Under the pieces are notes generated by a model. That model was not told where the DNA came from. It did no database searches and saw only the letters and a program-made list of their open reading frames with translations. The position numbers and the translations under genes were made by a program. Shown here one piece after another: positions 1-37,097 of a DNA stretch of 64,000 bases. The first letter of the stretch is position 1; each line of letters starts with the position of its first letter. The stretch covers positions 1-64,000 of the forward strand of contig NIVC01002121.1 of NCBI GenBank assembly GCA_002269645.1, read 5' to 3'. The stretch is from Macrostomum lignano (Eukaryota).

Positions 1-854
1 GTTCTACCTCCGTTAAAAAAGGAAAAAGAAGATAATCGTATAATACTACTATAAGTAAGTAAGTACACGCATGTGCGCCTAAGCTTTGAATGAATCACGC
101 TACCAGAAAAAGATGTTACCAGAATAATACGCCATGAGCCATTTTCCCCTTTTAGCGCAACACGTGAATTGTCATGATACTATTTTGGATCAAAAACTTG
201 TCTATAAATACAAGCGATCTGAAGCGGTACCGGAGCCATTCTCCCCACGGAAGAGGAGCGCTCCGAAGAGGAAGCCTTAGGAGGACTTCCTGATCTACCA
301 AGTCAATCGAGACTCGGTCGAGTTGTTGCGGTAAGCCTTCCTTATTTGCGCCCGTTGTGTTAGAGACGTCTCGCTCAAGTCTATTGAGACTTGAGTCTAA
401 TTGAGTCTGTTGAGACTCTTGAGTCTGTTTAGACTCCATTGGTTGCAGTCTCCAGAAGGACTGCCCCTGATAGATCTTAGAGGACTATCAGTGGTTTCCG
501 GAGCTATACCTAGAGTGCATAGAGGCACTGCTAGAAGAAGGAGGCTTAATTTAGACCGCAGTTTGGCGCAGGGTACCCATTGTTGCTACGAGGCCTCTGA
601 TTGGTCCTGACGGAAGATACCGGCCGGAAGAACTTATCGGAAGTACAAGAGGAACCAGGACCAGAGCAACTGAAGAATCAAGGCGCCTGATCTACGAGAT
701 CTACTGACAAGTTCCTAGCGAGAACTACTCAAGAAATTCAAATCCGGATTAAAGGTAATTGAATACCTTCGTTTGACTTACTGGGTTGCCTAGCTGTTGA
801 GCTAGAAGTGATTGTTCCTTGATTATCGAAAGTCGGGTAATAAGGAACACATCA
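1..854 (+). repeat. 5' LTR, subtype A
   Basis: Matches 10808-11663 apart from two homopolymer indels near the start; ends ...AAGGAACACATCA. Confidence 0.95.
203..336 (+). promoter_or_regulatory. LTR TATA box (TATAAATA at 203) and downstream 5' splice donor (GCG|GTAAGC at 331)
   Basis: Both motifs recur at equivalent positions in all LTR subtypes despite divergent U3 sequences. Confidence 0.6.
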
Positions 855-856: not shown

Positions 857-874
857 TGGTGATCTCGCCCTCTC
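857..874 (+). promoter_or_regulatory. Putative primer-binding site TGGTGATCTCGCCC
   Basis: TGG 2 nt after the LTR end in both full-length copies (857, 28046). The first 11 nt resemble a tRNA-Trp-type PBS, but the primer is not securely identified. Confidence 0.6.
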
Positions 875-1570: not shown

Positions 1571-3043
1571 ATGGCGCGGCGCAATCCAACGGTACACAGA
1601 GACATCAAAGAAACGGTCGGTACTTTCTCGATGGAGAAAGATTTTAACACATTTGTCGACCATTTTGACCTGGTATGTAGGGAATACAACCTACAAAATC
1701 CAGAGAAGGCACAGCTGCTGCCACCTCTTCTCCAAGGTACTGCGCGAGAAATTTACGGCAAGCTGGATGCGGCAACACAGCAAAATTATCCAGCACTAAT
1801 CATTCAACTGCGCGCGCATTTCAACCGTTGCGGCACAAACAGATCAGTGCTGCTGCACAAGTTGCATAACAGAAGGATGCAAGCAACAGAATCCTTCCTC
1901 GCCTTTGTGGACGATATCCGCCAGATAATTAAGGCACTGCATCAGCCACCGCTGCAAGCTGCGGACCAACCACCACTGGGAGCGGCAGAATTGGCCGCCA
2001 GAGAAAGACAACGATTGATGGATCGTGAACAAAACCTCATCCTGCACGTAATAAACAACGCACAGCCGTCACTTCGGGATAGACTTTTGCGTGAAAATAT
2101 CGAAACCGAAGAAGACCTTTTGCGTTGCGGAATGCAATGGGAAGCCAGTGCCCCATTAATGACGACAGGCAACAATGAAGTGCAGAAACTGACGCAGCAA
2201 CTAAACAAGTTAATGCAGCACCAGACAGCTGCTATCGCCGAACAAAAAAGACGAAATGAACAAGCCTCAGCCAGATGTTACTACTGCGGACAAGAAGGAC
2301 ATTATCAGATTAATTGTCCTCATTGGTCAACAAGATACGACAAGCCGCGACAGATATTCAACAATCAGAAGCCGCAGAAACCATGGCAGCACTATCAAAA
2401 TCGCCAACAACAAGGAATGAGACGCTTCGGAAATGATAGACGCTTCGGAAATAATGACCGCTCCGGAAATGATGGCCGCTTCGGAAACGAAGGCCGCTTC
2501 AGAAGTAATGGCTACAGGCCACGCAACGTCAGATACACACAAAGACAGCCGACGCAAGCAATGCCACGATACGCGAATGCCATCACGTACACACCGGAAA
2601 ATGAACAGCAAGAACAGCAAGTGTTCACAATTGACGACTTGGAAATGGACTTCACAGTCCCGGAACTTGACATCAGCTTGATCGAAAAGAAGACGACGCA
2701 CGAGGACAACACTGACAACACAGAAGAGACGAATGAAACCGAAATGATCAAATTAAAAGAGACCACCGGAGACAGCAGAGAAAACAGGAAGAAAGTAAAT
2801 CACAAGACAAGGGAGGAGGCGGAGAGCGACATCGGCAACGAAGAAAAGATGAAAACCGGCGAAGAAAACAACTATGAATCGACAACAGTGGATGACGACA
2901 AAACGAGCATGAAAGACAAAGAAATGAAAGAAGAAGAAGAATGTAGAAGTTACGGCAACGACCACGACTGCGAGGTGCGTGATGACACGAACGACTACCA
3001 AGCCGAAAGAGGAATGCAGGAAGAACGAGAGCGGAGAATCTAA
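1571..3043 (+). CDS. gag: Gag (capsid-like domain, CCHC knuckle CYYCGQEGHYQINC, RFGN repeats, acidic linker); separated from env-pol by a 1-bp deletion
   Basis: Ty3/gypsy capsid-type N-terminus and zinc knuckle. Copy 2 reads through this point (GAACTGAGA versus GAAC-GAGA at ~3026). Confidence 0.9.
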   Translation: MARRNPTVHRDIKETVGTFSMEKDFNTFVDHFDLVCREYNLQNPEKAQLLPPLLQGTAREIYGKLDAATQQNYPALIIQLRAHFNRCGTNRSVLLHKLHNRRMQATESFLAFVDDIRQIIKALHQPPLQAADQPPLGAAELAARERQRLMDREQNLILHVINNAQPSLRDRLLRENIETEEDLLRCGMQWEASAPLMTTGNNEVQKLTQQLNKLMQHQTAAIAEQKRRNEQASARCYYCGQEGHYQINCPHWSTRYDKPRQIFNNQKPQKPWQHYQNRQQQGMRRFGNDRRFGNNDRSGNDGRFGNEGRFRSNGYRPRNVRYTQRQPTQAMPRYANAITYTPENEQQEQQVFTIDDLEMDFTVPELDISLIEKKTTHEDNTDNTEETNETEMIKLKETTGDSRENRKKVNHKTREEAESDIGNEEKMKTGEENNYESTTVDDDKTSMKDKEMKEEEECRSYGNDHDCEVRDDTNDYQAERGMQEERERRI

Positions 3044-3090
3044 GTTCCGACAGCGATCAAGGCTACGAAATACAATGGAAAGATGAAGAA

Positions 3091-6000
3091 ATGGAAAAAG
3101 AACAGGTGAAAGAAAAGCCGAGTTCCGACAGCGACGAATGCTACGAGATCCGATACAAACGAAATGGTGAAGCCTATATTCAAACGGTCGACTACAAGAC
3201 AGAGAAAAGATACCAAACGCAATGGAGTGAAACAACGGAAACATCGGAAGAAGCCGCAGACGAAGATAATGAAATAACCAAAAAGCAAAGCGAATCAGAA
3301 GCCTTCCGCCTGGATCAGCCAATGGAACAACCGAAAGAATATGATGCGGACATGGAAGATAACGAATGGCGATCGCAGCCAATGCCAGCAAGGACAACGG
3401 CAAAATCCAAGAAGTGGAAAAACTGGCTATTCTGGATCATCGTGATACTACTGATAGCAGTAGTCGCCAAAGCAACGGCAACGGAAAAGCCAATGATTTG
3501 TCCAACGGATGCGCATATCCAACCGATGATCTACAAGATACCAACCGACATCAAATGCAGTTACTTCAAGACAAACCAGACAAAACCAAAGAAGATTACA
3601 CTCGATCTCTACAAGGCTAACATCAAGAAGCATCGACAACACGGGATAGTATGCTTCAGAGACAAGCACCTGGTGGAAAAAGTTTGGCGCGGACAATGGA
3701 ACCGGATCCGATTTAAACAACATGAGCTACATGTGTCGCACGCGGAATGCCTACAATGGAATCAAACACTATTTTCAAAGGATGGTGAACTGGAACCAGA
3801 TGAGAAGGTCGGCAACGCACAGCTGTTCAGAACAAAGAATTCAGCCAACGGTCGATATATTCACTTCTTCGGAAAATGGAAAGAATATATGGCACGCAAC
3901 AGCTACTTGATCAGAAATATTCCATTCTACTACAATCCGTACGAGAAAATGGAATCGTTACAGCTGCAACTAAGCGAATGTCGATACAGTGAAGGATGGT
4001 GTCCAACGCCGATTCTACGGAAGGAAGAACTACACAGTCTACCACTGAGTCCAACATATCATCAAGACTATCGATGGCAGATTGAGCACAGAGCACAATC
4101 ACACTATGAGGAACCGTACAAATCACGACAATACTTCTTCGCGTGGGAAGTTGAGCCGGAAATTGACTGCAAGCTTCAAAAGTATCACACAGTTGAAGGA
4201 GGACTACTGTCAAATACGTTTTTGGCAAAGTCAGGAGACTTGGCACTGACGTTTCAAAAGAAACCAGTCGAGCAAAAACTGAAATGCAAGGATACAGACA
4301 AGACACTATTCATCTCGGAACAAGAGATACCAGTCTACGTAAAGGATGAAGACAAACAAACCTTCTTGGCAATCATCAATGGAACGTATCAGCAACAAGA
4401 AAAACAGAATAGAAGACGACGTGACATCGAACGTCCCAAACTGGTGTCAAACCGGCTGTTGTCAGCAAAGATAACGGCTTTGGATCACAATCTACACAAC
4501 CAGTTAAACCACTTGCATCGAACACTGGTCCAGCTAACTTGCAAAATGCACGCAATCAACTTAAATTATGCCAGACAAAACTACTATGTCAACCCTACGA
4601 TGACTTTTCGTAAAATCACCGGAATGACGAACGTTTTGGCAGTTCCAATATACGAGCATCTGTTGATATACAAGTGCACGCCGATACAGCACTTTAACAT
4701 CTTGCCGTCAAACACGTCAACAACCTGCTACGATAAGCCAAGGATTGAAGCGTTCTACGAAGGAAAACGAATTCAGGGATTCTTGGACACGGTACACAAC
4801 ATCATCGTTGGCACCGCAATACCGAGACCTTGCACCACGGCAGTAAACTACTATCAACTGGACAATGCACTACACGTCATCAAAACAACTGGAACGACAG
4901 CAAACGTCACAGAACCGGAAGTAATCGTCGACGAAAACTACGACATGGAGGATTTGAAAATCCGATTCAACAGAACGAAGTATACGCCATTCGCCGATAT
5001 CCAACTTGACGAGATAACACCAGGATGGACGATCAACGACTTCTTGCAAGCGTTCATCACCCAACGCAAGATGATTCACCAGCTGTTCACAAGAAAGGAC
5101 AAAGGAACCGGGACAGGAAGATTTCCCGTCCTTGTTTCAATGGACAGCGCCATCAAATCATTTTGGACAAATAGCTTCTGGGAGCTGCTCAATGGAAGAG
5201 GCAGTCTCTATCAAGGATTCATCTTCTACGGTGCTTGCATTGTGTGGATTGTCACGGCAATCTTCATCATTTCATCGATCGTACGGTGCTTCAGTCAAAC
5301 TTGTCCAAGAGCTAAGAAGACAGTGAATGCCATAATGCAAAGAACGACAACGGAAAGCGACAACAGTTTAGAACTAACAGAAACTGCACATTGTGAGGTT
5401 CAAGGGCAACCGACACTAGCAACGCGGCTATATCCATCGATTCCGACAACACCAACGGCACCAAGGATACAACCACCCAACTATCAAGCAGAACAGCACG
5501 AGCCAAAATGGCCGGAAAACTACGTCTGTACGCTACACGCCGAGATTGGCAAAGCAATGGCTCAGGTCATTGTCAACAACTTGCCATGTCGAGCACTACT
5601 GGATTCAGGCAGCTCGATCACAGTCATCTCGCAACAATTATGCAACAAGCTACGACTCGCGGTACGACCAGCAGCAATCGCAGTTGCAGGAGCAGGAGGA
5701 CATTCACTCAACATCCTAGGAAAAGCAGATATCGACTTGAAAATTGCTAATAAACAGCTGACGGTCCCGACGTACATCATCGACAGACTACCAAACCAAG
5801 ACGTCATCGTTGGAATCGACACGTTCAAGCAGCTTCAACTACCATTGACCTTCGACTTCAACAAGCAAACGTTTAGGATCGACACGGTGGAGCAACCGCT
5901 GATCAACCAGATTCGAGTACTACCGAAAGTAACTCTGCAGCAAGATGTCATTATCCAGCCTGAAAGCGCATGCTGGGTCAGAGCGAAAACGACCAGCGCG

Positions 6001-9000
6001 GCAGATGAAGCAATGATATTTGATCCACACAGGAGAGTCACGGCAAAACATCAAATCATGATGCCTACGGCACTAGTGCTGGTTGCAAAGGATAAGCAAC
6101 TGCCAGTACAAATCTTCAACCCGAACACAGAAACGGTTCATCTACGACAAGGAATGTGCATCGGTCATCTCAACACCCAAGCATCGGTTATGCTGATTGA
6201 ACAAGCGACTCCACGACTAACAGAGGAAGAATTTCAAAAGAAGATCAATTTGGATGACAGCCCGATTACGGAACAGCAAAAGAGGAAAGTTCGACAGCTG
6301 TTGTGGAAGTACAACGAAGCCTTCTGCCATCATGATTACGACATCGGACGAGCCAAGGACATCAAACAGGAAATCAAACTTCTGCCGCACACGGAACCAA
6401 TTCAGTGCAAGCCGTACCCGATCGCCAAGCATCTGCAACAACACTTTGACGAAATCATCGATAAAATGCTAAAGCACGGCATCATCAGCAAAGCTATTTC
6501 GGCTTACTCCTCACCGTGCCTACTGGTACAGAAGAAGGAGACAAACGAAAGACGACTCGTATGCGACTTCAGACTGTTGAACAAGTACATACCGACGGAT
6601 CAGCAAAGCCTACCGAAGATCTCCGAACTACTAGCAAAGCTCAACACGGCAAAATTGTTCACGGTGTTCGACCTACGTCATGGATTTTGGCAAATTGAAA
6701 TCGAGAAAGAGTCACGACAGTACACGGCTTTCAAAACCTACAATGGACAAGTATACGAGTACAATCGATCGCCGATGGGACTTAGCAACAGCCCAGCAAC
6801 GATGAGTCGACTAACAGCATACATGCTAGCAGGATGCACGAACCTGCTGCACTATGTCGACGACATTTTAGCCTACGGAGAGGATTTCGAGCGACTCTAC
6901 GAAGCTACGGAGAAGGCCCTAGCGCTCATTCAACGCCAAGGTCTGAAGCTACAACCAACTAAATGCAAATTCTTCCGAGACAACGTGCGTTACCTGGGAC
7001 ATCAGGTGACAGCCAAAGGAATCTCACCGGACCCAGACAACGTGGAAAAGGTGAAGAAGTTTCCTACGCCAACCAGTATAACGAAGGTCCAATCATTCCT
7101 TGGACTTGCGCAATACTTCAGGAAGTTCTTACCTAACTTCGCAAAGACAGCAAAGCCACTGTACGACCTGCTCAAGTTCGACAAATGGAAGCAAGACAAC
7201 TGGACACAGAGACAACAGGAAAGTTTCGACGAAATCAAACGACAGCTGACATCAGACGCACTGCTACAGCATCCGGACTTCGACAAGCCCTTCATCATCG
7301 AGACAGACGCCTCAGGAACGGGACTCGGAGCAGTCCTACTACAGGAAACCGAGGACAAGAAGGAACGACCTATTGCCTACGTCAGTCGAGCACTCAAACC
7401 AAATGAAACAAAGTGGTCAGCTACGGAACGAGAGCTACTAGGAGTCTTGTTCGCCCTGCGACAGTTTCATTACTACATCTATGGTTCTCCAATACAGACG
7501 ATAGTACGCACGGATCATGCACCATTGACCTACGTCGTAACTACAAAAGGACAGACCAACAACCGACTCATCAGAATGACACTCAAGATCCAGGATTACA
7601 ACTACAAACTCGTCTACAAACCAGGAATTACCAACAAAGCCGCGGACGCCCTGTCAAGAGCCTATGAAGTCAACGCCATTCATCCAATCCCTAACATCAA
7701 GGAGTTGGTGGATGAAACCGAGCGCGACAACTTCTACCAAGCGGTTAAAGACGACGACAAGAACATCAAACTCAGTCCCATGGAACGAAAATTCCTACGC
7801 AAGCAACGACAACACCTAACAATCAATAAGTCACGGCTCTACTGGATGAGCGACAATAAACCCAAGATCTACATACCATATTCGTTTCGGCAAGCAATTC
7901 TCAACGAGCTACACGACAACCCACTCGCTGGACACCTGTCGGCAGCAAAGACCATCGCGAGAGTGGAACAATACTACTTTTGGCCAACTATGTACGGCGA
8001 CATCAAGCAGTATTGCAACAACTGCCATTCATGTGCTGCATCAAAGACAGGACGACGACAGAAACCGCAGCTACAGTCCATTCCGAAGTCGACTACAATG
8101 GACTGTCTAAGCATCGACATCACCGGACCGCTACCACCGAGCTGTCTCCAGGGCATCGCCTACACCTACATTCTAACCGCCTTGGATATCTTCTCGAAGT
8201 TTGCTATCGCCATACCGATACCGGACATCACAGCTCAGACAGTGGCAATGAGTTTCTTCAACGAAATCATTTGCAAGTACGGCACGCCGAAGAACCTCAC
8301 ATCGGACAACGGATCGCAGTTTACATCGCAACTGTTTCAGCAAGTCGTAAGGATTCTCAACATTACGCAGATCTACACATCGACCTACAATCCGAAGGCA
8401 AACATGGTTGAACGGTTTCACCGCAACCTGCACGAGATGATTACACATTTCGCGCACCAACAGCCGGAAGACTGGATCATCTACCTGCAATCTGTAACAA
8501 TGGCCTACAACAGCGCTATTCATCGATCAACGGACAATACGCCATTCTTCCTAATGTTTGGACGAGACTTCCAACCGCCGAATCTGCTCGCACAGCAATT
8601 GCTACCATCGCAGTACGTGGAAGTACCGACTTCCATTCAGAAATTCGTCACGCAACTACACCTCGCATGGAAGATCGCCAAGCACAACATTGACAACCAG
8701 GTGGCTCTGACCACCGGCAACGACGCGAGATCGACAACCCTGACGGCCGGCGACATCGTCTACCTACACTACCCGCCACAGCAGACGCATAAACATGCAC
8801 AGAAGTACAAAGGACCCTATCGAGTGGTCCAACTAACGTCACCAACAACGGCACGCCTGGCTAATGTACAAGATCCACATCAGCACCAGTTCTACGTACA
8901 CATTCATCGACTAAAGAAGATCAACACTGACACAGCGACGTTTCTACCGACATTAGACAACGCTGATCGCACGCGTTCAACGAACCGCCACATCGCGACG

Positions 9001-9066
9001 AAGCACGAGGAGACTCAAACGACAGATGTGAGCCAGCCACATGGCTACAACCTACGACCACGCTAG
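3091..9066 (+). CDS. pol: Env-Pol polyprotein: signal peptide, class III-like fusion glycoprotein, TM, then PR, RT, RNase H, integrase
   Basis: LLDSGS (5602), YVDD (6853), ETDASG, HHCC, D-D-E (DITG/DNG/VER), GPY, terminal YNLRPR. Upstream: hydrophobic WLFWIIVILLIAVVAKA, RRRR site at 4411, TM at ~5218-5283. Confidence 0.93.
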   Translation: MEKEQVKEKPSSDSDECYEIRYKRNGEAYIQTVDYKTEKRYQTQWSETTETSEEAADEDNEITKKQSESEAFRLDQPMEQPKEYDADMEDNEWRSQPMPARTTAKSKKWKNWLFWIIVILLIAVVAKATATEKPMICPTDAHIQPMIYKIPTDIKCSYFKTNQTKPKKITLDLYKANIKKHRQHGIVCFRDKHLVEKVWRGQWNRIRFKQHELHVSHAECLQWNQTLFSKDGELEPDEKVGNAQLFRTKNSANGRYIHFFGKWKEYMARNSYLIRNIPFYYNPYEKMESLQLQLSECRYSEGWCPTPILRKEELHSLPLSPTYHQDYRWQIEHRAQSHYEEPYKSRQYFFAWEVEPEIDCKLQKYHTVEGGLLSNTFLAKSGDLALTFQKKPVEQKLKCKDTDKTLFISEQEIPVYVKDEDKQTFLAIINGTYQQQEKQNRRRRDIERPKLVSNRLLSAKITALDHNLHNQLNHLHRTLVQLTCKMHAINLNYARQNYYVNPTMTFRKITGMTNVLAVPIYEHLLIYKCTPIQHFNILPSNTSTTCYDKPRIEAFYEGKRIQGFLDTVHNIIVGTAIPRPCTTAVNYYQLDNALHVIKTTGTTANVTEPEVIVDENYDMEDLKIRFNRTKYTPFADIQLDEITPGWTINDFLQAFITQRKMIHQLFTRKDKGTGTGRFPVLVSMDSAIKSFWTNSFWELLNGRGSLYQGFIFYGACIVWIVTAIFIISSIVRCFSQTCPRAKKTVNAIMQRTTTESDNSLELTETAHCEVQGQPTLATRLYPSIPTTPTAPRIQPPNYQAEQHEPKWPENYVCTLHAEIGKAMAQVIVNNLPCRALLDSGSSITVISQQLCNKLRLAVRPAAIAVAGAGGHSLNILGKADIDLKIANKQLTVPTYIIDRLPNQDVIVGIDTFKQLQLPLTFDFNKQTFRIDTVEQPLINQIRVLPKVTLQQDVIIQPESACWVRAKTTSAADEAMIFDPHRRVTAKHQIMMPTALVLVAKDKQLPVQIFNPNTETVHLRQGMCIGHLNTQASVMLIEQATPRLTEEEFQKKINLDDSPITEQQKRKVRQLLWKYNEAFCHHDYDIGRAKDIKQEIKLLPHTEPIQCKPYPIAKHLQQHFDEIIDKMLKHGIISKAISAYSSPCLLVQKKETNERRLVCDFRLLNKYIPTDQQSLPKISELLAKLNTAKLFTVFDLRHGFWQIEIEKESRQYTAFKTYNGQVYEYNRSPMGLSNSPATMSRLTAYMLAGCTNLLHYVDDILAYGEDFERLYEATEKALALIQRQGLKLQPTKCKFFRDNVRYLGHQVTAKGISPDPDNVEKVKKFPTPTSITKVQSFLGLAQYFRKFLPNFAKTAKPLYDLLKFDKWKQDNWTQRQQESFDEIKRQLTSDALLQHPDFDKPFIIETDASGTGLGAVLLQETEDKKERPIAYVSRALKPNETKWSATERELLGVLFALRQFHYYIYGSPIQTIVRTDHAPLTYVVTTKGQTNNRLIRMTLKIQDYNYKLVYKPGITNKAADALSRAYEVNAIHPIPNIKELVDETERDNFYQAVKDDDKNIKLSPMERKFLRKQRQHLTINKSRLYWMSDNKPKIYIPYSFRQAILNELHDNPLAGHLSAAKTIARVEQYYFWPTMYGDIKQYCNNCHSCAASKTGRRQKPQLQSIPKSTTMDCLSIDITGPLPPSCLQGIAYTYILTALDIFSKFAIAIPIPDITAQTVAMSFFNEIICKYGTPKNLTSDNGSQFTSQLFQQVVRILNITQIYTSTYNPKANMVERFHRNLHEMITHFAHQQPEDWIIYLQSVTMAYNSAIHRSTDNTPFFLMFGRDFQPPNLLAQQLLPSQYVEVPTSIQKFVTQLHLAWKIAKHNIDNQVALTTGNDARSTTLTAGDIVYLHYPPQQTHKHAQKYKGPYRVVQLTSPTTARLANVQDPHQHQFYVHIHRLKKINTDTATFLPTLDNADRTRSTNRHIATKHEETQTTDVSQPHGYNLRPR
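3424..5283 (+). other. env: Envelope glycoprotein domain (gB-like class III fusogen) embedded between gag and protease
   Basis: Signal peptide, Cys-rich ectodomain (CRYSEGWC), furin site, long amphipathic helix ending LTC..NP, CYDKP and RPCT motifs, C-terminal TM. Confidence 0.8.
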
Positions 9067-9186: not shown

Positions 9187-9855
9187 ATGGGCAACGCACT
9201 GTCGAAACAGGCGCCCCAGCCTCAGCAGCTATATGACTGCCCGATATGTTTAACTGATGACTTGGCTGTCAAGCCACCGACTATTTGCATCAATGGACAT
9301 AAAGTTTGCGGACAATGTTTAAGTGATTCACACTATATTCAGCCCTGGCAGAGTTGTCCCCTCTGTAGAGATAGTTTGCGACAATGTGCCTATTGTTATT
9401 CTTGGCGCACGTTTCAATATTGTAACCACCAACATTTTATTTGCATGCACTGTTTGAAGCAAACCGCTAGTAGGGGCATTATAGGATGCCCCTTATGTAA
9501 CAGTATGCCCCGCGAAAACACTTTTAAGAAATGGTGTCGGATTATACCTGACCCAGCGCGTTGTTTATCCGTTTACACTATGCACACCTTAACCGCTATG
9601 AGTATCGAACGGCGGCTGGAGTTTTGGCCTGTACCTCGCTTCGTTCAGCGGTCGCGACGACAGCTACTATTATATGCTCATAGAAATCAAGGATTTTTGC
9701 GTCATTTGTCACCCTTGGAGATTGAGCGACATTTGCGGCAGTTTTTGCATGACCACGAATCATTTCACTGGACGCTACACGTATACTGCCACGCGCTTAA
9801 ACGATTAGTGCTCTCACGTAGCTATTTTATTTGGCTTTTTAGGTCTCACCGATAG
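9187..9855 (+). CDS. RING-A: tandem C3HC4-type RING protein with N-terminal MGNALSK myristoylation motif
   Basis: CPIC..CINGHKVCGQC..CPLC and CAYC..CNHQHFICMHC..CPLC; conserved in several copies. Confidence 0.85.
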   Translation: MGNALSKQAPQPQQLYDCPICLTDDLAVKPPTICINGHKVCGQCLSDSHYIQPWQSCPLCRDSLRQCAYCYSWRTFQYCNHQHFICMHCLKQTASRGIIGCPLCNSMPRENTFKKWCRIIPDPARCLSVYTMHTLTAMSIERRLEFWPVPRFVQRSRRQLLLYAHRNQGFLRHLSPLEIERHLRQFLHDHESFHWTLHVYCHALKRLVLSRSYFIWLFRSHR

Positions 9856-9925
9856 AACATATGCTTGTTACGTATCTTGAATAATCCTCAATCGTTCTAA
9901 CTATACCTATACCTATCGCCCACAG

Positions 9926-10557
9926 ATGACCGAGATGGATACCTGCCCCTGCTGCCTCGAGGCACGGAGCCGATGCTCCCGACTTGTGAATGGGGGCACC
10001 AGGTGTGCTTCCCCTGCGACGAGCGGGCGCGAGAAATTGGCGACGTGACGATCCTTACCGCCTGCCCCGTCTGTCGCAGACCGCGGGTCCAATGTGCCCT
10101 TTGCGGCGACCAGCCCAATGTACGACTCTGTTCAAATCGGCATTGGGTGTGTTTCAGCTGTCTTCAGCGGTACGGTGCACGAGACATCATGACGTGCACC
10201 GTGTGCCTGGCTCCGCTGTCCAACACAGCATCCGTACTACTGGCACCGATGCTCGCCGTACCGGAGCTAACGCTGGCGGAGCCGGATGAGCTAACCCTGG
10301 AACAGCTGGCCGTCGCCGTACGAACGTGGCCATGGCCGCTTCAGCATCAGGCCGACTGGCGGTGGTTACTAGACATCGCCAGGACTATGGTGCGTACAGC
10401 AGAACCGCTTACGACCATAGAGGCCTATCTGCTTTTGCTGGAGCGGACCGAGGATCCGCGATTCACTAAGTTTCAGTCGCTGTACTGGGCAGTGGCATCC
10501 CTGGTGGCGCGAACCACGCATCAGGTGAGCAGCCTGCTCAGGACAAGCTTCGGCTGA
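9926..10557 (+). CDS. RING-B: tandem RING protein, paralogue of RING-A (1-bp deletion at ~9965 in this copy)
   Basis: CPCC..CEWGHQVCFPC..CPVC and CALC..CSNRHWVCFSC..CTVC; intact 210-aa version at 37098-37730. Confidence 0.8.
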
Positions 10558-10760: not shown

Positions 10761-10799
10761 AAAACTCGGGACGAGTTTTTTCGTAAAAAAGGGAGATTT
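10761..10799 (+). promoter_or_regulatory. Hairpin AAAACTCG-GGA-CGAGTTTT followed by polypurine tract AAAAAAGGGAG
   Basis: Directly precedes each family-G 3' LTR seen with its internal flank. Confidence 0.8.
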
Positions 10800-11663
10800 T
10801 GTAGAGTGTTCTACCTCCCGTTAAAAAAGGAAAAAAGAAGATAATCGTATAATACTACTATAAGTAAGTAAGTACACGCATGTGCGCCTAAGCTTTGAAT
10901 GAATCACGCTACCAGAAAAAGATGTTACCAGAATAATACGCCATGAGCCATTTTCCCCTTTTAGCGCAACACGTGAATTGTCATGATACTATTTTGGATC
11001 AAAAACTTGTCTATAAATACAAGCGATCTGAAGCGGTACCGGAGCCATTCTCCCCACGGAAGAGGAGCGCTCCGAAGAGGAAGCCTTAGGAGGACTTCCT
11101 GATCTACCAAGTCAATCGAGACTCGGTCGAGTTGTTGCGGTAAGCCTTCCTTATTTGCGCCCGTTGTGTTAGAGACGTCTCGCTCAAGTCTATTGAGACT
11201 TGAGTCTAATTGAGTCTGTTGAGACTCTTGAGTCTGTTTAGACTCCATTGGTTGCAGTCTCCAGAAGGACTGCCCCTGATAGATCTTAGAGGACTATCAG
11301 TGGTTTCCGGAGCTATACCTAGAGTGCATAGAGGCACTGCTAGAAGAAGGAGGCTTAATTTAGACCGCAGTTTGGCGCAGGGTACCCATTGTTGCTACGA
11401 GGCCTCTGATTGGTCCTGACGGAAGATACCGGCCGGAAGAACTTATCGGAAGTACAAGAGGAACCAGGACCAGAGCAACTGAAGAATCAAGGCGCCTGAT
11501 CTACGAGATCTACTGACAAGTTCCTAGCGAGAACTACTCAAGAAATTCAAATCCGGATTAAAGGTAATTGAATACCTTCGTTTGACTTACTGGGTTGCCT
11601 AGCTGTTGAGCTAGAAGTGATTGTTCCTTGATTATCGAAAGTCGGGTAATAAGGAACACATCA
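10800..11663 (+). repeat. 3' LTR, subtype A (864 bp)
   Basis: TGTAGAG...CATCA, preceded by PPT. Confidence 0.95.
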
Positions 11664-15770: not shown

Positions 15771-18700
15771 TTAGCACTAACGTTTCAAAAGAAACCGGTC
15801 GAGCAAAAGCTGAAATGCAAAGATACAGACAAGACACTATTCATCTCGGAGCAAGAAATACCAGTCTACGTAAAGGAGGACGACAAACAAACTTTTCTGG
15901 CAATCATCAATGGAACGTACAATTAACTCGAACGACAAGACAGACAACGACGCGACATAGAACGACCAAAACTAGTGTTAAACCGACTACTATCAGCGAA
16001 GATCACGGCTTTGGATCACAATCTGCATAACCAGCTAAACCACTTACACCGATCACTGGTTCAGCTAACTTGCAAAATGCACGCGATCAACCTGAATTAC
16101 GCGAGACAAAACTACTACGTCAACCCTACGATGACATTTCGCAAAATCACTGGAATGACAAACGTTTTGGCGATTCCAATATACGGACATCTTCTAATAT
16201 ACAAGTGCACACCAATTCAGCACTTCAACATCTTGCCGTCAAACACGTCAACGACATGCTATGACAAGCCGAGAATTGAAGCATTCTACGAAGGAAAAAG
16301 GATACAGGGATTCTTGGACACGGTCCACAACATCATCGTTGGCACCGCCATACCAAGACCTTGCACGACTGCAGCGAACTACTATCAACTAGACGATGCA
16401 CTACATGTCATCAAGACAACGGGAACGACAGCGAACATCACAGAACCGGAAGAAATCGTTGATGAAACTTACGACATGGAAGACTAAAAAATACGATTCA
16501 ACAGAACGAAATATACTCCGTTCGCCGATATCCAACTTGATGAGATAACACCAGGATGGACCATCAACGACTTTCTGCAAGTGTTTATCACACAACGTAA
16601 GATGATTCGCCAATTGTTCACACGAAAGGATAAAGGAACTGGAACGAGCAGATTCCCGGTACTCGTTAATATGGACAACGCTATACAGTCGTTTTGGACA
16701 AATAGCTTCTTGGAGCTACTAAACGGAAGAGGCAGCCTCTACCAAGGCTTCATCTTCTACAGCGCTTGTGTCGTATGGCTCGTCACGGCAATTTTTATCA
16801 TCTCGTCATTGGTACGATGTTTCAAAAACGCTTGCCCTAAGGCAAAGAGAACAGTGAACGCAATCATGCAACAGGCGACAATGGAAGAAGACAACAACTT
16901 GGAATTGACAGAAAACACACAACAGGAAACTCAAGGAGAGCCAACAGTATCAACGCGACTGTATCCATCGATTCCGACAACACCAACGGCACCGAGAATG
17001 CAACCGCCTACTTACCAGCCGGAGCGTCACGAACCAAAATGGCCAGAAAATTACGTTTGCACGCTACACGCTGAGATTGGCAAAGCAATGGCTCAAGTTG
17101 TCGTCAACAACCTACCCTGTCGAGCGCTACTGGACTCCGGCAGCTCCATCACAGTTATATCAAAGCAACTGTGCAACAAACTACGACTAGCGCTACGACC
17201 AGCAACAATCGCAGTTGCAGGAGCAGGACATTCACTAAACATTCTGGGAAAAGTCGACATCGATTTAAGGATAGCTAATAAGCAACTGACGGTTCCGACG
17301 TACGTCATCGACAAACTGCCAAACCAAGACGTTATCGTTGGAATCGAAACGTTCAAGCAGCTTCGACTACCATTGACCTTCGACTTCAATAAACAGACGT
17401 TCAAAATCGACACGGTCGAACAGCCACTAGTCAACCAAATTCGAGTACTACCAAAAGTGACATTGCAGCAAGACGTCATCATCCAACCTGAAAGCGCATG
17501 CTGGGTCAGAGCAAGAGCAACCAGTGCGGCGGATGAAGCAATGATATTCGATCCGAATAAAAGGGTCATGGCGAAACATCAAATTATGATGCCTACAGCT
17601 CTAGTACTGGTCGCACAAGACAAACAATTGCCAGTACAGATATTCAATCCAAACACGGAAACGGTACACCTTCGACAAGGAATGTGTATTGGTCATCTCA
17701 ACACCCAAGCGTCAGTTATGCTAATCGAACAGGCAACTCCACGACTAACGGAAGAGGAATTTCAGAAGATGATAAACTTAGATGACAGCCCGATCACGGA
17801 ACAGCAAAAAAAGCAAGTGCGACAACTATTGTGGAAGTACAACGACGCCTTCTGTCACCATGACTACGACATTGGACGAGCTAAAGACATCAAGCAAGAA
17901 ATCAAGCTTCTACCGCATACAGAACCGATTCAATGTAAACCGTACCCGATTGCCAAACATCTGCAAAGACATTTCGATGAAATTATCGACAAAATGCTGA
18001 AGCACGGCATCATCAGCAAGGCCATTTCAGCATACTCATCACCATGTCTCTTAGTACAGAAGAAAGAAACGAACGAAAGACCACTCGTATGCGATTTTAG
18101 ACTATTAAACAAACACATACCGACGGATCAACAAAGCCTACCAAAAATTTCGGAACTGCTAGCGAAGCTCAACACTGCGAAATTGTTCACGGTATTCGAT
18201 CTACGTCATGGATTTTGGCAGATAGAAATTGAGAAAGAATCGCGACAATATACGGCCTTCAAAACCTACAATGGACAAGTTTACGAATACAATCGTTCAC
18301 CGATGGGACTCAGCAACAGCCCAGCAACGATGGGTCGACTAACGGCATACATGTTAGCAGGATGCACAAACCTGCTACACTATGTCGACGACATCTTAGC
18401 CTACGGAGAAGATTTTGAACGACTCTACGCAGCTACGGAAAAGGCTCTAGCGCTTATCCAACATCAATGTCTTAAGCTGCAACCGACGAAATGCAAATTT
18501 TTCCGCGACAACGTACGTTATCTGGGACACCAGGTAACGGCCAAAGGAATCTCGCCGGATCCAGACAATGTGGAGAAAGTTAAAAAGTTTCCTACGCCAA
18601 CAAGCATAACGAAAGTACAATCATTTATCATTTCTTGGACTTGCGCAATACTTTCGGAAGTTCCTACCAAACTTCGCGAAAACAGCCAAGCCGCTGTACG

Positions 18701-20593
18701 ATTTGCTCAAGTTCGAAAATGGAAACAGGAGTACTGGACGCAACTACAGCAAGATAGCTTCGACGAAATCAAACGACAACTGACAACAGACGCACTACTA
18801 CAACACCCGGATTTCGACAGACCATTTATTATCGAGACGGATGCCTCAGGAACAGGACTCGGCGCAGTCCTGCTACAGGAAACGGACGACAGAAAAGAAC
18901 GACCCATCGCCTATGTCAGCCGAGCACTTAAACCAAACGAGACGAAATGGTCAGCAACAGAAAGAGAACTACTAGGAGTTCTGTTCGCACTACGAAAATT
19001 TCACTACTACATCTACGGCTCACCGCTACAGACACTGGTACGCACCGATCACGCACCGCTCACTTACGTGGTAACCACCAAAGGACAGACCAACAACAGA
19101 CTCATTAGAATGACGCTCAAGATCCAAGACTACAACTATAAGCTTGTCTACAAACCAGGAATCACGAACAAGGCTGCGGACGCTCTGTCAAGAGCCTACG
19201 AGGTTAACGCCATTCACCCGATTCCTAATATCAAGGAATTGGAAAATGAGACCGAGCAGGACAGCTTCTACAAAGCTGTTAAGACCGGCGGCACGGACAT
19301 CAAGCTAAGTCCAGTGGAACGCAAATTCCTGCGCACCCACACTTGACTATCAATAAGTCACGACTCTACTGGATGAGCGACAACAAACCAAGGATTTACG
19401 TGCCATACTCGTTTCGACGAGCCATATTGAACGAACTGCACGATAATCCCCTAGCTGGACACTTGTCAGCTACTAAGACTATCGGACGAGTGGAACAATA
19501 CTACTTTTGGCCGACTATGTACGGCGACATAAAGCAGTATTGCAACAACTGCCACTCATGCGCTGCATCAAAGACAGGACGACGACAAAAACCGCAACTA
19601 CAGTCAATACCGAAGTCAACAACAATGGACTGTCTCAGTATTGACATCACTGGACCGCTACCGCCAAGCTGTCTCAATGATGCAGCCTACACCTACATCT
19701 TGACAGCACTGGACATTTTCTCGAAGTTCGCCATCGCAATACCGATACCAGACATCACAGCACAGACAGTGGCAAGGTGTTTCTTCAATGACATCATTTG
19801 CAAGTACGGTTCACCAAAAACGCTCACGTCGGATAACGGATCACAGTTCGTATCACAGCTGTTTCAGCAAGTGGTAAAGATACTCAACATCACCCAGATC
19901 TACACGTCAACTTACAATCCGAAAGCTAACATGGTCGAACGGTTTCATCGCAATTTACATGAGATGATCACGCACTTCGCACATCAACAACCGGAAGATT
20001 GGATCATCTATCTACAATTGGTTACGATGGCTTACAACAGTGCCATTCACCGATCGACAGACAATACGCCATTTTTTCTGATGTTTGGACGAGACTTTCA
20101 GCCGCCAAACCTATTGGCTCAGCAACTGTTACCATCACAATATGTGGAAGTTCCGACATCTATCCAGAAATTTGTCACGCAGCTGCATCTAGCATGGAAG
20201 ATCGCCAAGCACAATATTGACAACCAAGTGGCTCTGACCACCGGCAACGACGCGAGATCAACGACTCTGACGGCCGGCGACATCGTCTACCTACACTATC
20301 CGCCACAGCAGACACATAAACATGCGCAAAAGTACAAAGGACCCTATCGAGTGGTCCAATTAACTTCACCGACAACGGCGTGTTTGGCTAATGTCCAAGA
20401 TCCTCACCAACATCAGTTCTACGTGCACATCCATCGACTAAAGAAAATTAACACGGACACGGCAACATTTCTGCCGTCACTAGACAACGCGGATCGCACG
20501 CGTTCAACGAATCGCCACGTAGCAACGAAGCACGTGGAGACACAGACTACAAGTGAGAATCAGCCGCATGGCTATAACCTACGACGACGCTAA
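15771..20593 (+). pseudogene. 5'-interrupted env-pol of a diverged family-G copy (several frameshifts)
   Basis: ORF pieces 15815, 15975, 16581 and 19343 are collinear with copy 1 from mid-env to the integrase end. Confidence 0.9.
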
Positions 20594-20708
20594 ATTTCGA
20601 GAACGACCCGTGTAGTGACCGGGATAAGAATAGCACTACAGCTTCGCAAGCTTGTCGTAAAAGGCGATTAATCTGAGCGACCAAGACACTAACTAAGTGA
20701 AGACGATT

Positions 20709-21377
20709 ATGGGCAACGCACTGTCAAAACAGGCGTTCCAACCTCAGCAGCGATATGACTGTCCAATTTGTTTAACTGATGACTAGGCTGTCAAGCCACC
20801 GATTATCTGTGTAAATGGACATCGCATATGCGGACAATGTTTAAGTAACGCTCATTATATTCAACCCTGGCAAAATTGCCCGTTATGTAGAAGTAGTCTT
20901 AGACAGTGTGACTATTGTTACTCCTGGCGCACATTTCAATTTTGTAGACAGGAACATTTTATTTGTATGCAATGCTTTAAAAGAACAACCAAACGAGGCA
21001 TCGTCGGGTGTCCCGTTTGTAACAACATACCGTACGGACGCGCCTTCAGGCAGTGGTGTCGCATACAACCCGAGCCTATGCGTATTTTAACCCTCGATAC
21101 TATTTGCACCTTACCCGCTATTACTATTGAGCAACGACTGGAGTTTTGGCCAGTCCCGCGCTCAGCTCAGAGATCGCGCTATGAATTGTTTTTATACGCA
21201 CATGAAAATCAAGGTCTACTGCGTCATATGGCACCTCTTGCTATAGATAGGCTCCTTAGGCAGTTTTTAAGTGCACAAAATGCGTTTCACTGGTCCTTGC
21301 GAATCTATTGTTACGCGCTTCAACGGCTTATTTTGTCACGCAGCAATTTTATATGGCTTTTGCGATATCCCCAGTAA
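20709..21377 (+). pseudogene. RING-A, disrupted (in-frame TAG and frameshift)
   Basis: MGNALSK start; GAC TAG where others have GAC TTG. Confidence 0.8.
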
Positions 21378-21439
21378 CATATTCAACTGTTAACGCCACA
21401 AGTCCTCAGGTTAATAACAATAATGTATGTTACCCGCAG

Positions 21440-22075
21440 ATGGACAACTACAACACCTGCCCCTGCTGTCTGGAAGTACGGGAGCCGATGCTCCCGACAT
21501 GTGAATGGGGGCACCAAGTGTGCTTCCCCTGCGACCAGCGGGCTCGAGAGGTAAACGGCGAAGTAACAATGCTGTTCGCCTGTCCGGTCTGCCGCAGGCC
21601 GAGGGTCCTTTGTGCCATCTGCGGCGACCAGCCTAACATCCAAGCCTGTGCAAGCAGGCACTGGCTGTGTTTTACATGTTTGCAGCGTTACGGTGCACGT
21701 GACATTCGCACGTGTACCGTCTGCCTGGCCCAGCTGACCGGCCTCGCGTCCCTCCTGCTCGATCAAATGTCAGTGATACCGGAGTTGGCGCTGAAAGAAC
21801 CAGACGCGCTTACGCTGGAACAACTGGCGGTCGCCGTCAGGTCTTGGCCATGGCCGTCCCGGCACTTGGCCGCCTGGCAGCACCTATTGGATATTGCCAG
21901 GACAATGGTCAGGGATATGGTAGCGACCACAGCGATAGACTGCTACCTGATCCTGCTGGAGCGGACGGAGGACCCGAGGTTCCTGTGGTTTCAGCCACTG
22001 TTCTGGGCGGTGGCCTGCTTGGTTGCCCGAGCTGCACAGCAAGTCACACACACGCTACAGATCAGTTTTGGCTGA
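21440..22075 (+). CDS. RING-B, intact diverged allele
   Basis: CAG|ATG start; tandem RING plus C-terminal WPWP helical domain. Confidence 0.8.
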   Translation: MDNYNTCPCCLEVREPMLPTCEWGHQVCFPCDQRAREVNGEVTMLFACPVCRRPRVLCAICGDQPNIQACASRHWLCFTCLQRYGARDIRTCTVCLAQLTGLASLLLDQMSVIPELALKEPDALTLEQLAVAVRSWPWPSRHLAAWQHLLDIARTMVRDMVATTAIDCYLILLERTEDPRFLWFQPLFWAVACLVARAAQQVTHTLQISFG

Positions 22076-22322
22076 ATGCCTCAACAGCTCACGGCGACAA
22101 GGTGCGGTAGGCCTACGGCGAAACTTGGACTCAACCAGGAGAGCCAGGACAGCGCACGACCATGACTAAAGGAACACTAACAGTCACGAATAGTAGAGTT
22201 TATACACGATGCCTTATGTATAAATACAGATTTTGGCACGTTTTTACTACTAGATGGTACAAACCACTGTTTTATTTCATTGTTTAAACTCGGGACGAGT
22301 TTTTTGTGAAAAAGGGAGAATT

Positions 22323-23315
22323 TGTAGAGTGTTCTACCTCCCGATAAAAGTAAAAAGTAAAAATCATAGATACTACTGTAAGTAAGCAAGTGCATGCATG
22401 CGCACTTAAGATAGAAAATGATGTAAGTTGCTATTTATAGCATATGAATCATGTGGCTATTTATAGCGGATGAATCATGTTGCAACATATGGCGACATAG
22501 TGATTCATGTTACTATTTATAGCATCAGAATGATTCATGTTACTATTTATAATAACAGCATGAGTCATGTTACTATATTTAACCACAATCAATCTTATTT
22601 CACCTTACAGCGCAACACGTGACTCATGGACAAAATGCCTATAAATATAAGTGGCCCAGAGCGGCACCGGAGTCATTCTCCCCACGGAAGAGGAGCGCTC
22701 CGAAGAGTGTGTCGATAGGACGACATACTAGTTAACCAGTCAACTAAGACTTGGTCTGATAGTTGCGGTAAGCCTTTCTTAATTGCGCCTATTGTTATTA
22801 GAGCCGGCTCGCTCTTGTCTGTTGAGACTTGAGTTTGATTAAGTCTATTGAGACTTTTGAGTCTGTTGAGACTCCTGTGGTCGTAGTCTCCCGAAGGACT
22901 ACCCTAGTAGATCGTAGAGGACCTACTAGCGATATCCGGAGCATACCTAGTAGAGTGCAGAGAAGCACCACTAGAAGAAGAAGGCTTAAGAGAAACCGCT
23001 ATATTTGGCGCAGGGATCCCATTGTCGACAAGAAGAATCTGATTGGCCCTGACTACATTACCGACCGGAAGTTACTTCATCGGAAGTAAAGAAGAAGCAA
23101 AGGGCCCGAAACAGGAGACACACAGAACCTGGTCTACGCGATCGCCGAAGGATCTACAGACGAGATCAACGAGAATCTACCGCGCGAATTAAGAAGAGAT
23201 ATCTCTGAGGAAAGTCGAGGTAAGTAATACCTTGTTGATAACTGGGTTGCCTAGCTAAATAGCTAGAAGTGGTGGTTCCTTGATTATTAAAAGACTGGTA
23301 ATAAGGAACACATCA
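22323..23315 (+). repeat. Family-G 3' LTR, subtype D
   Basis: PPT then TGTAGAG...CATCA; U3 with tandem CTATTTATAG / TGA(A/T/G)TCA units. Confidence 0.9.
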
Positions 23316-25254: not shown

Positions 25255-25270
25255 TATCTTGCCAATAGAT

Positions 25271-36238: not shown

Positions 36239-36358
36239 AGTTTCGAGAACAACCCCGTGTAGTGACCGGGATAAAGAATAGCACTACAGCTTCGCAAGCT
36301 TGTCGTAAAAGGCGACTAATCCGAGCGACACAAAGACAGCGACAAATTGACGACAATT

Positions 36359-37027
36359 ATGGGCAACGCACTGTCGAAACAGGCACCCCAACCTCAGCAG
36401 CTATATGACTGCCCGAAATGTTTAACTGATGACTTGGCTGTCAAGCCACCGACTATTTGCATCAACGAACATAAAGTTTGCGGACAATGTTTAAGCGATT
36501 CACATCATATTCAGCCATGGCAGAATTGTCCCCTCTGTAGAGATAGTTTGCGACAATGTGCCTATTGTTTTTCTTGGCGCACGTTTCAATATTGTAACCA
36601 CCAACATTTTATTTGCATGCACTGTTTGAAGCAAACCGCTAGTAGGGGCATTATAGGATGCCCCTTATGTAACAGTATGCCCCGCGAAAGCACTTTTAAG
36701 AAATGGTGTCGTATTATACCTGACCCAGCGCGTTGTTTATCAGTTTACACTATGCACACCTTAACCGCTATGAATATCGAACGACGGCTGGAGTTTTGGC
36801 CAGTACCTCGCTTCGTTCAGCGGTCGCGACGACAGCTACTATTATATGCTCATAGAAATCAAGGATTTTTGCGTCATATGTCACCCTTGGAGATTGAGCG
36901 ACATTTGCGGCAGTTTTTGCATGACCATGAATCATTTCACTGGACGCGACGCGTATACTGCCACGCGCTTAAACGATTAGTGCTCTCACGTAGCTATTTT
37001 ATTTGGCTTTTTAGGTCTCACCGATAG
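36359..37027 (+). CDS. RING-A
   Basis: Intact, near-identical to 9187-9855. Confidence 0.85.
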   Translation: MGNALSKQAPQPQQLYDCPKCLTDDLAVKPPTICINEHKVCGQCLSDSHHIQPWQNCPLCRDSLRQCAYCFSWRTFQYCNHQHFICMHCLKQTASRGIIGCPLCNSMPRESTFKKWCRIIPDPARCLSVYTMHTLTAMNIERRLEFWPVPRFVQRSRRQLLLYAHRNQGFLRHMSPLEIERHLRQFLHDHESFHWTRRVYCHALKRLVLSRSYFIWLFRSHR

Positions 37028-37097
37028 AACATATGCTTGTTACGTAACTTGAATAATCCTCAATCGTTCTAACTATACCTATACCTATCGCCCACAG

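Follow-up and report, generated by a model that had tools for sequence, protein, structure and literature searches.

The locus analyzed here poses the question whether an endogenous retrovirus of the flatworm Macrostomum lignano produces Gag, Env and Pol, arranged in that sequence, from one reading frame, and how such a polyprotein might be processed and released. The window that we examined comprises 64,000 nucleotides (assembly GCA_002269645.1, contig NIVC01002121.1, positions 1 to 64,000) and contains three copies of the element (Table 1). A database protein of 98% identity likewise names this host. We consider it likely that this is a recently mobile Ty3/gypsy retrovirus of M. lignano with a single Gag-Env-Pol frame, which is processed and buds as proposed below.

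Table 1. Features of the Gag-Env-Pol element copies in the window.
Feature	Position	Strand	Remarks
Copy 1 5' LTR	1..854	+	start cut by window/contig edge
Copy 1 primer binding site	857..870	+	14 nt complementary to tRNA-Val(AAC) 3' end
gag	1571..2590	+	capsid-like helical region; a single CCHC zinc knuckle at 2276-2317; Gly2 absent
Acidic low-complexity linker, NC to signal peptide	2591..3402	+	contains copy 1 frame break near 3,026
Putative internal signal peptide	3403..3480	+	basic n-region, 15-residue h-region, A-x-A at putative cleavage site
gB-like class III fusogen ectodomain (predicted)	3481..5217	+	579 aa with 12 Cys and 6 sequons for N-glycans; furin site at 4411-4422
Transmembrane anchor	5218..5283	+	by hydropathy
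Cytoplasmic tail / Pol leader	5284..5520	+	candidate protease site 5320-5337; LYPSI 5428, PTAP 5452, PPNY 5473
Aspartyl protease and spacer	5521..6183	+	DSG at 5602; Pfam Asp_protease_2 E=1e-9
Reverse transcriptase and RNase H	6184..7665	+	YVDD 6853; Pfam RVT_1, RT_RNaseH
Integrase	7666..9066	+	HHCC, DDE core, GPY motif; Pfam Integrase_H2C2, rve
Accessory ORF A	9187..9855	+	222 aa; RING-like zinc fingers in tandem; sub-threshold Pfam match to zf-RING_2 (E=1.6e-4)
Accessory ORF B	9901..10557	+	tandem RING-like paralogue; broken near start in copy 1
Copy 1 polypurine tract	10785..10796	+	
Copy 1 3' LTR	10800..11663	+	864 nt, TG...CA
Copy 3	15771..23315	+	5'-truncated, begins inside env; ~81% identity to copy 1
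Copy 2	27190..38826	+	full length, 4-bp target-site duplication, sits inside solo LTR

The sequence-only reading had described copy 2 (28751-36238) as one frame from the gag start to the integrase stop that is interrupted by two amber mutations, and it indeed holds one frame that runs from ATG to TAA over 2,495 codons and contains TAG in frame at just two places (32216, 35216). In copy 1, gag starts with the ATG at 1571, and a separate Env-Pol frame of 2,026 aa spans 2986-9066; the longest ORF in shuffled DNA of this frame averaged 100 aa and reached at most 198 (200 shuffles). The one-base break assigned to this copy is recognizable, relative to copy 2, as a frame-changing indel, and the postulated polyprotein length of 2,498 aa is seen directly in unbroken genomic copies rather than by mending copy 1. 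Copy 3 lacks gag and the signal peptide. Gag, Env and the full Pol share one natural frame of 2,439-2,498 aa in 9 of 17 M. lignano stretches that were fetched because of their long frames; a frame length of 2,370 aa or more was reached in 12 of 79 Env matches. The placement of Env between Gag and protease is confirmed in the window and in the unbroken genomic copies. Among 59 homologs, eight carry a CCHC knuckle, Env and protease in that order.

The element is young and recently mobile: the LTRs of copy 1 are identical over all 853 aligned bases (853/853), and the ectodomain is 100% identical in 12 of the 79 genomic Env matches. Target duplications of 4-5 bp flank 16 of 20 young insertions. 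We rejected self-targeting, in which new insertions would aim at existing copies of the element; the flanks of these 20 insertions do not match the element, the sole match being to the interior of one 5' LTR itself. The window copies represent a long form (LTR spacing about 10,810 nt) that carries both RING genes, and a short form of the same family has a spacing of 9,705-9,759.

Gag gave a Pfam match to zf-CCHC (E=2e-4). Its single-sequence AF2 model is poor (pLDDT 46, no fold match) and does not prove the absence of a matrix domain; the search for Gag homologs among near-length proteins returned none at E<=0.001, which is no evidence of absence. Downstream of the linker (29% D+E in copy 2), a hydrophobic, signal-like stretch follows a basic run (3403-3420) and occupies 3424-3480, where a signal peptide had been proposed; our call is based on hydropathy and the -3/-1 rule. 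All 29 examinable homologs possess a hydrophobic stretch at the equivalent place, 16 of them with an upstream CCHC knuckle in the same protein. Might this stretch be a signal-anchor that is not cleaved, so that Env would cross the membrane twice and remain a loop joined to both Gag and Pol until it is processed by furin and the viral protease? Two transmembrane domains flank the ectodomain in some gB-type Envs (Chary and Hayashi, 2026; PMC13524379), and Pro-rich residues lie near the putative cleavage site in two copies of the second family. We nevertheless regard a signal-anchor as unlikely, given that the h-region spans merely about 15 residues before A-x-A, that in most homologs the conserved start P-M-[IL]-C comes directly behind small residues, and that the alignment of the Env model with gB sets in at residue 1-2, which is the N-terminal strand of the mature protein.

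With a cleaved internal signal peptide, the following course of events can be proposed. Translation would begin in the cytosol; the signal peptide would thread Env into the ER, where signal peptidase would free the Env N-terminus; the transmembrane anchor would halt transfer, and PR-RT-RH-IN would emerge in the cytosol on the Env tail. The signal-peptide stump and the long acidic tether would hold Gag at the same membrane, replacing a matrix domain, and Env trimers cut by furin in the Golgi would collect Gag and Pol at one membrane. Budding would rely on ESCRT, recruited through the PTAP, YPxL and PPxY motifs of the Env tail. The viral protease would then cut behind NC, within the Env tail and at the joints of the Pol enzymes, and the gB-like protein would fuse the particle with a neighboring germ-line or stem cell. 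We depart here from the sequence-only reading, which had signal peptidase release Gag: the cut occurs on the luminal side, so that the hydrophobic stretch would remain on Gag as its C-terminal anchor and keep it at the membrane, and it is consequently the viral protease that probably frees Gag, at candidate sites behind NC and within the Env tail. Capsid biology in flaviviruses and HCV offers an analogy for a Gag that keeps its C-terminal anchor after the signal peptidase cut. The 1:1:1 stoichiometry that had been deduced stands for synthesis only. Only tentatively do we propose a matrix-less mode of budding in which Gag is held by the Env signal peptide on its acidic tether, the ESCRT late domains no longer lie in Gag but in the Env tail (a p6-like peptide between the transmembrane anchor and protease), the protease trims this tail at maturation, and two or three tandem-RING proteins encoded by the element aid in budding or act against host defense; this combination appears possible to us rather than likely.

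The single frame might instead represent the genomic form only, with splicing, internal starts or selective degradation yielding mostly Gag or Gag-Pol without Env for intracellular movement, at ratios far from 1:1:1. A Gag:Env ratio of 1:1 is high for a retrovirus, which favors this alternative. Cer1 has spliced RNA besides genomic RNA (PMC3315495), and Tor elements express env by internal promoters or splicing (PMC4402516). Among the holders of the sequence on record, none is listed as RNA. Yet contigs of four runs, which are only guessed to be RNA, bridge gag, linker and signal peptide (1675-3528) as well as env, transmembrane anchor and protease (4415-5705); not one of the 12 contig joints listed shows GT-AG ends or connects gag with pol, bearing in mind that contigs drop rare forms and that cover of an ORF is no proof of transcription. 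We hence consider it quite unlikely that the frame is genomic only, and retain translation of the entire polyprotein.

The proposed resemblance of Env to gB is upheld by both profile and fold. The AF2 model of the ectodomain (pLDDT 78) matches HSV-1 gB in Foldseek (E=7e-23), nyamivirus G is the top BFVD fold match (E=4e-26), and comparison with herpesvirus gB gives a VIA Z of 12.7 over 402 residues (rmsd 6.2). A profile search reached EBV gB at E=3e-17; as a single sequence, the ectodomain yielded only a sub-threshold Pfam match and no match among PDB sequences, gB being reached by profile and fold only. As modeled, Env is a gB-like class III fold. By hydropathy, it is flanked by the signal peptide and, at the position previously assigned, by the transmembrane anchor; the R-x-R-R site is kept in all three copies (4411 in copy 1, 31583 in copy 2, 15942 in copy 3), as had been reported.

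One may ask whether Env retains this fold just to serve as a scaffold on which Gag and Pol assemble at the membrane, cell fusion having been lost and the mid-polyprotein position preventing loss of the protein. An in-frame position does force conservation free of stop codons. However, such a position keeps the frame open, not the residues: dN/dS of the linker is about 1.25 over 111 codons (neutral) versus 0.05 for Env, which is under purifying selection like gag (0.09) and Pol (0.06), and the furin site, the cysteines and the full gB domain set are retained. A mere scaffold is therefore very unlikely, and we favor a fusogen. Finally, the single frame could be an artifact, produced by misassembly or by gag, env and pol genes that are in truth separate and happen to be joined in frame. 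The broken state of both window copies and a possible double assembly of one locus (two unbroken stretches share one insertion site) could be cited in favor of this reading, which is already refuted by at least eight independent unbroken frames in two families with Env identity of 63%, and read contigs that agree with a continuous frame and fused homologs in other organisms leave it practically no credence.

The ESCRT late-domain motifs LYPSI, PTAP and PPxY precede the protease in the Env tail. They are retained in three M. lignano families, with the order of PTAP and YPx[IL] swapped, and one family 2 copy is devoid of PTAP. In 32 homolog tails, which are not independent of each other, P[TS]AP occurs 6 times against 0.27 expected (0/500 shuffles) and YPx[LI] 5 times against 0.98 expected (1/500 shuffles); PPxY is not enriched (61/500 shuffles), and only 11 of the 32 tails have any late motif. 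Under the matrix-less mode of budding considered above, this enrichment in distant homologs would suggest a design shared by Gag-Env-Pol elements across phyla. Candidate protease sites of the V-x-x-[IL] type are conserved at domain borders, with one candidate behind NC and another within the Env tail, the latter not clearly kept in family 3. Our literature search, which included parts of PMC13524379, found no description of late domains in Env tails.

The two RING ORFs downstream of pol probably encode accessory ubiquitin ligases that are dispensable in cis. Their RING-clan Pfam matches (E 2e-4 to 0.2) lie below cut-offs; atlas neighbors are viral RING proteins (score 0.91, low recognition). 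ORF A has a dN/dS of 0.13-0.23; among near-length proteins it has no homologs at E<=0.001, again no evidence of absence. We rejected a myristoylated, arenavirus-Z-like matrix as a general feature of ORF A, as the M-G-x-x-x-S start occurs in the window family only and Gly2 is missing in other families. Cover of the RING genes by read contigs is thin in three of the four runs, which we do not take as evidence. No RING ORFs in gypsy elements were found in our literature search, and the text of PMC5408684 does not contain the term RING.

Judged from its sequence, the element is a Ty3/gypsy endogenous retrovirus, an errantivirus in the wide sense. Its Pol order is PR-RT-RH-IN, as in Metaviridae; it has the TG...CA LTRs, tRNA primer site, polypurine tract and 4-6-bp target duplication typical of Ty3/gypsy; and the best PDB sequence match of RT/RH (copy 2 equivalent) is Ty3 Gag-Pol (E=5e-77), ahead of caulimovirus, foamy virus and MLV RTs. 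A Bel/Pao assignment (Belpaoviridae, Tas-like) was rejected: there is no Pfam match to Peptidase A17 or DUF5641, and env precedes PR; a weak DUF1759 match in Gag is the sole Bel/Pao-like Pfam trace, and one homolog (P0066) is of Bel/Pao type. An F-type env that is separate, spliced and located 3' of pol, as in insect Errantivirus (gypsy/ZAM type), is absent from the element.

The design is not as novel as initially thought: GAG-ENV-POL Ty3/gypsy elements with a gB-type Env have been published from nematodes, bryozoans and flatworms (Chary and Hayashi, eLife 2026; PMC13524379), and the window thus holds no element of a new kind. Such elements do not form one clade (PMC13524379); in the parts of that study consulted, the Macrostomum element falls into RT clade S with Oikopleura, nemertean, annelid and springtail elements, and nematode elements into clades R and Y. 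Its main text does not mention polyprotein, single ORF, fused, frameshift or in-frame, the window Env is absent among the flatworm sequences of its structure table, and neither a model of processing nor late domains nor RING genes are described in the sections consulted on HSV/gB-type errantiviruses. Our literature search found nothing further on continuous gag-env-pol ORFs (PMC12801592 has no env in its text or 5 supplements), no prior description of the tRNA-Val primer site, late motifs in the Env tail or two tandem-RING genes after pol, and no account of the processing, assembly or release of a Gag-Env-Pol polyprotein. The late motifs, candidate protease sites and RING genes yield checkable predictions on the working of a gB-like fusogen without gH/gL in a non-insect animal, and Macrostomum, a laboratory model with RNAi and transgenesis, provides a tractable example of a young Gag-Env-Pol family.

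With herpesvirus gB and mono-/jingchuvirus G, the modeled Env shares the whole-ectodomain fold, the long central helix and the furin site preceding it; it differs in its low identity to gB and G proteins (9-15%), its smaller size and its production inside a Gag-Pol polyprotein, and, compared to gB, in the lack of a gH/gL partner. Nematode endogenous retroviruses (NERV) reportedly possess one uninterrupted gag-env-pro-pol ORF together with a glycoprotein resembling that of nyamiviruses, reminiscent of the top BFVD match of the window Env, in hosts of a different phylum. Their env lies before pol, as cited from the 2022 study of Sacco et al. (J Gen Virol 103:001739). The Bel/Pao elements Ascaris Tas and mosquito Anakin likewise combine an LTR element with a gB/chuvirus-like class III fusogen, but their Env follows integrase and their protease is of the Pao-type A17, absent here. 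The HSV/gB-type errantiviruses of Chary and Hayashi agree with the window element in Ty3/gypsy Pol, GAG-ENV-POL order, a class III gB-like Env flanked by a signal peptide or two transmembrane domains, and near-identical copies. Their Platyhelminthes_Rhabditophora_Mlig_errantivirus_2 from M. lignano (ENV_HSV type; PMC13524379, Supplementary file 1), whose primer tRNA is entered as 'others', has a primer-site 12-mer that is the reverse complement of window positions 857-868 and begins 2 nt after the LTR in both, an LTR of 863 nt (864 nt in window copy 1) and an LTR spacing of 9,727, within the range of the short form and in contrast to the long-form window copies with both RING genes. Compared by table description rather than by sequence, it and the window element very probably belong to the same family.

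One LTR element occurs repeatedly in the window, with two copies at full length and many others partial. Copy 2 is a single frame of 2,495 codons broken only by two TAG stops, as the sequence-only reading had described it, and relative to it copy 1 carries a single net indel that shifts the frame at about 3,026, the position at which the break had been placed. Continuity from gag to env is therefore visible in copy 2, and that from env to pol in copy 1; in the shuffle control of the Env-Pol frame, the longest ORF was at most 198 aa. The signal-like stretch, the TM segment and the R-x-R-R site were likewise found where they had been claimed.

Coordinates of the features of the element and its surroundings
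Feature	Position	Strand or copy	Remarks
Gag-Env-Pol frame	28751-36238	copy 2	TAG at 32216 and 35216
Signal-like stretch	3424-3480	copy 1	hydrophobic
TM	5218-5283	copy 1	
R-x-R-R		all three copies	
5'-truncated pol of another gypsy element	11610-14450	+	RT-RH-IN; 946-aa frame; ~30% identical; adjoins 3' LTR of copy 1; presumably Mag-like
Solo LTRs, longer variant (~1,070 nt)	26478-39186 and 51133-52203		4-bp duplications; copy 2 lies inside the first
G-skewed part	24001-25000		skew 0.4; within non-element stretch 23320-26218
C-rich repeated region, twice	46857-47817, 59824-61157		ORFs of 190-290 aa; within non-element stretches 46583-48427 and 59584-62301

Copies elsewhere in the genome do not normally keep gag and env-pol in separate frames. 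A search for Env, in which 75 of 261 candidates were scored, gave 79 matches, 12 of them inside frames of at least 2,370 aa. Among 17 fetched stretches (these 12 and five others), nine (L031-L037, L039, L040) encode Gag, the whole of Env and the whole of Pol as a single 2,439-2,498-aa frame; two of the nine have common flanks and may be one locus. The remaining eight comprise two whose frame extends from Gag through most of integrase, one with a gag deletion and five that are broken. Two of the unbroken stretches belong to a second family (identity 71% in Gag, 63% in Env, 72% in Pol), so that the fusion predates the present burst. Contigs of four sequencing runs, whose RNA origin is a guess and not on record, span gag-linker-signal peptide and env-TM-protease, and the 12 joints listed from them include none with GT-AG ends and no in-frame gag-to-pol joint skipping env. 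The single Gag-Env-Pol frame is the normal state of this element.

Gag-Env-Pol fusion is widespread: 8 of 59 homologs have CCHC, Env and protease motifs in this order within one predicted protein, five of them with RT as well, although these counts rest on gene models in which false joins are possible. A hydrophobic stretch lies immediately upstream of Env in all 29 examinable homologs, with a zinc knuckle further upstream in 16 (counted without a shuffled control). One homolog is a Bel/Pao element with Env downstream of integrase. Of the homologs P0021 and P0017, one has a NADAR domain ahead of the gB-like Env and the other is a chimeric gene model.

The proposed likeness of Env to gB was borne out by profile and by predicted fold. 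The Pfam model Monjiviricetes_fusion gives a weak, sub-threshold match to Env (E=8e-6) and also hits 25 of the 43 members of our alignment, which comprised the ectodomain, two own-genome relatives and 40 of the 59 homologs (the longest and some short ones omitted). Searched against the PDB, a profile built from this alignment found herpesvirus gB in 49 of 50 rows, led by EBV gB (E=3e-17). The AF2 model of the ectodomain (pLDDT 78, pTM 0.53) matches HSV-1 gB in Foldseek (E=7e-23, TM 0.50), as well as nyamivirus, chuvirus and herpesvirus glycoproteins, and aligns with postfusion gB from residue 2 over 402 residues (Z 12.7, rmsd 6.2). By these comparisons Env is a class III fusogen, with fusion and infectivity as predicted properties. 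A comparison of copies 1 and 2 gives dN/dS values of 0.05 (Env), 0.09 (Gag) and 0.06 (Pol) versus ~1.25 for the linker (111 codons): Env is maintained for its sequence and not merely as an open frame. Synonymous divergence is 0.52 in Env (3481-5217 versus 30662-32389) and 0.13-0.14 in Gag and Pol; recombination between subfamilies therefore appears to swap env segments.

Judged by its sequence, Pol is of the Ty3/gypsy type: its order is PR-RT-RH-IN, its best PDB match is Ty3 Gag-Pol, and it contains no Pao protease. The LTRs begin with TG and end with CA, and the 5' and 3' LTRs are identical at 853/853 positions in copy 1 and 852/854 in copy 2. The 14-nt primer site matches the genome's own tRNA-Val(AAC) genes, which are arranged in pairs ~840 nt apart (L088, L090, L092). 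Target duplications of 4-5 bp flank 16 of 20 young insertions, located in unrelated DNA; the young dispersed copies show no targeting of their own kind. A database protein, 'retrovirus-related polyprotein [Macrostomum lignano]', is 98% identical across the part of Env that it covers.

All element matches in the window lie on the + strand (BLAST 46/46, 45,848 bases; LTR starts 14/14; LTR ends 15/15), as does the Mag-type pol, and most copies lack the 5' part (eight LTRs with PPT, two with primer site). Several same-strand matches also occur on contigs C87, C1130, C272 and C4009. Such a nest may be a flamenco-like cluster, a reading suggested by the unidirectional piRNA clusters of up to 94 kb described for Macrostomum in PMC4604429, or a graveyard of LTR recombination.

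Translation would start in the cytosol with CA, NC and a 330-residue acidic linker, followed by a run of basic residues and a 15-residue hydrophobic stretch acting as an internal signal. The ectodomain would then enter the ER, the TM would serve as stop-transfer, and Pol would be left on the cytosolic side. Signal peptidase had been proposed to release Gag; since it cuts on the luminal side, Gag would instead stay anchored in the membrane, in the manner of flavivirus and HCV capsids. Gag lacks Gly2, and such an anchor could take the place of a matrix domain; the Gag fold model, which is poor and without a fold match, does not prove that MA is absent. Candidate cleavage sites for the viral protease are the conserved V-x-x-[IL]-type sites that lie downstream of NC, 13 residues past the TM, before PR, and at PR/RT and RH/IN; the tail site is doubtful in the third family. 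The suggested 1:1:1 stoichiometry is retained for synthesis only.

Late-domain motifs such as PTAP, YPxL and PPxY recruit ESCRT in retroviral Gag. Here LYPSI, PTAP and PPNY are packed into 19 residues of the ~80-residue tail between TM and protease, where PTAP and PPxY have their sole occurrences in the polyprotein. PTAP and YPx[IL] recur in both other families in swapped order, one copy lacking PTAP. Across the tails of 32 homologs (3,424 aa; 500 shuffles), P[TS]AP occurs six times versus 0.27 expected (0/500 shuffles; five in the other 33,707 aa) and YPx[LI] five times versus 0.98 (reached in 1/500), while PPxY, with two occurrences, is not enriched; 11 of the 32 have at least one such motif. 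Assembly would rest on Env trimers bringing Gag and Pol together, with ESCRT drawn in by the tail and maturation of the particle carried out by the protease. Budding without matrix, with late domains carried on the Env tail, is a tentative proposal that we consider somewhat more apt to fail than to hold.

Two tandem-RING-like ORFs lie between pol and the 3' LTR, and two or three paralogues were present in all seven stretches examined from three families (dN/dS 0.13-0.40). A search with the first ORF for homologs of similar length elsewhere found none at E<=0.001; the Atlas neighbours are viral RING proteins, weakly matched. Most of this cassette has been lost from a short form of the family, whose LTR spacing is 9.71-9.76 kb (eight contigs) against 10.81 kb in the long form (four); since the LTR starts of the short form are nevertheless identical, the cassette is dispensable in cis. 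Two further families (L036, L037, L044 and L048-L055; Env 62-63% identical) have the same layout with 2-3 RING ORFs. Several cassette matches outside the scored Env matches (e.g. contigs C301, C525, C1063) may represent relatives that lack env or are more distant, and G000:C2447:182788-202549, with three LTRs spaced 9.73 kb, is a short-form tandem dimer or an assembly artefact.

For nematode elements, Sacco and colleagues are reported to have described a continuous gag-env-pro-pol ORF in 2022, which would put the continuous frame already in print. Our literature search, covering few subscription journals, found no report of late-domain motifs located in the tail of Env, of the RING cassette or of the tRNA-Val primer. 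Env is unmentioned in the available text of a Macrostomum LTR survey (PMC12801592). Chary & Hayashi (PMC13524379) report an HSV/gB-type Env, in the order GAG-ENV-POL, for Ty3/gypsy elements from three phyla, Nematoda, Bryozoa and Platyhelminthes, and they cite Sacco et al. 2022 for env lying ahead of pol in nematode elements. The terms for a single continuous frame that were looked for are absent from their main text, and figure panels may show such a frame. The single polyprotein with a gB-like Env is thus real and well supported, but it is already known, gene order and Env class being published (PMC13524379). In the table of that paper, Mlig_errantivirus_2 (ENV_HSV, 16 copies, LTR 863 nt, LTR spacing 9,727) has a primer 12-mer identical to that of the window element and, matched on such table features, very probably represents the same family.
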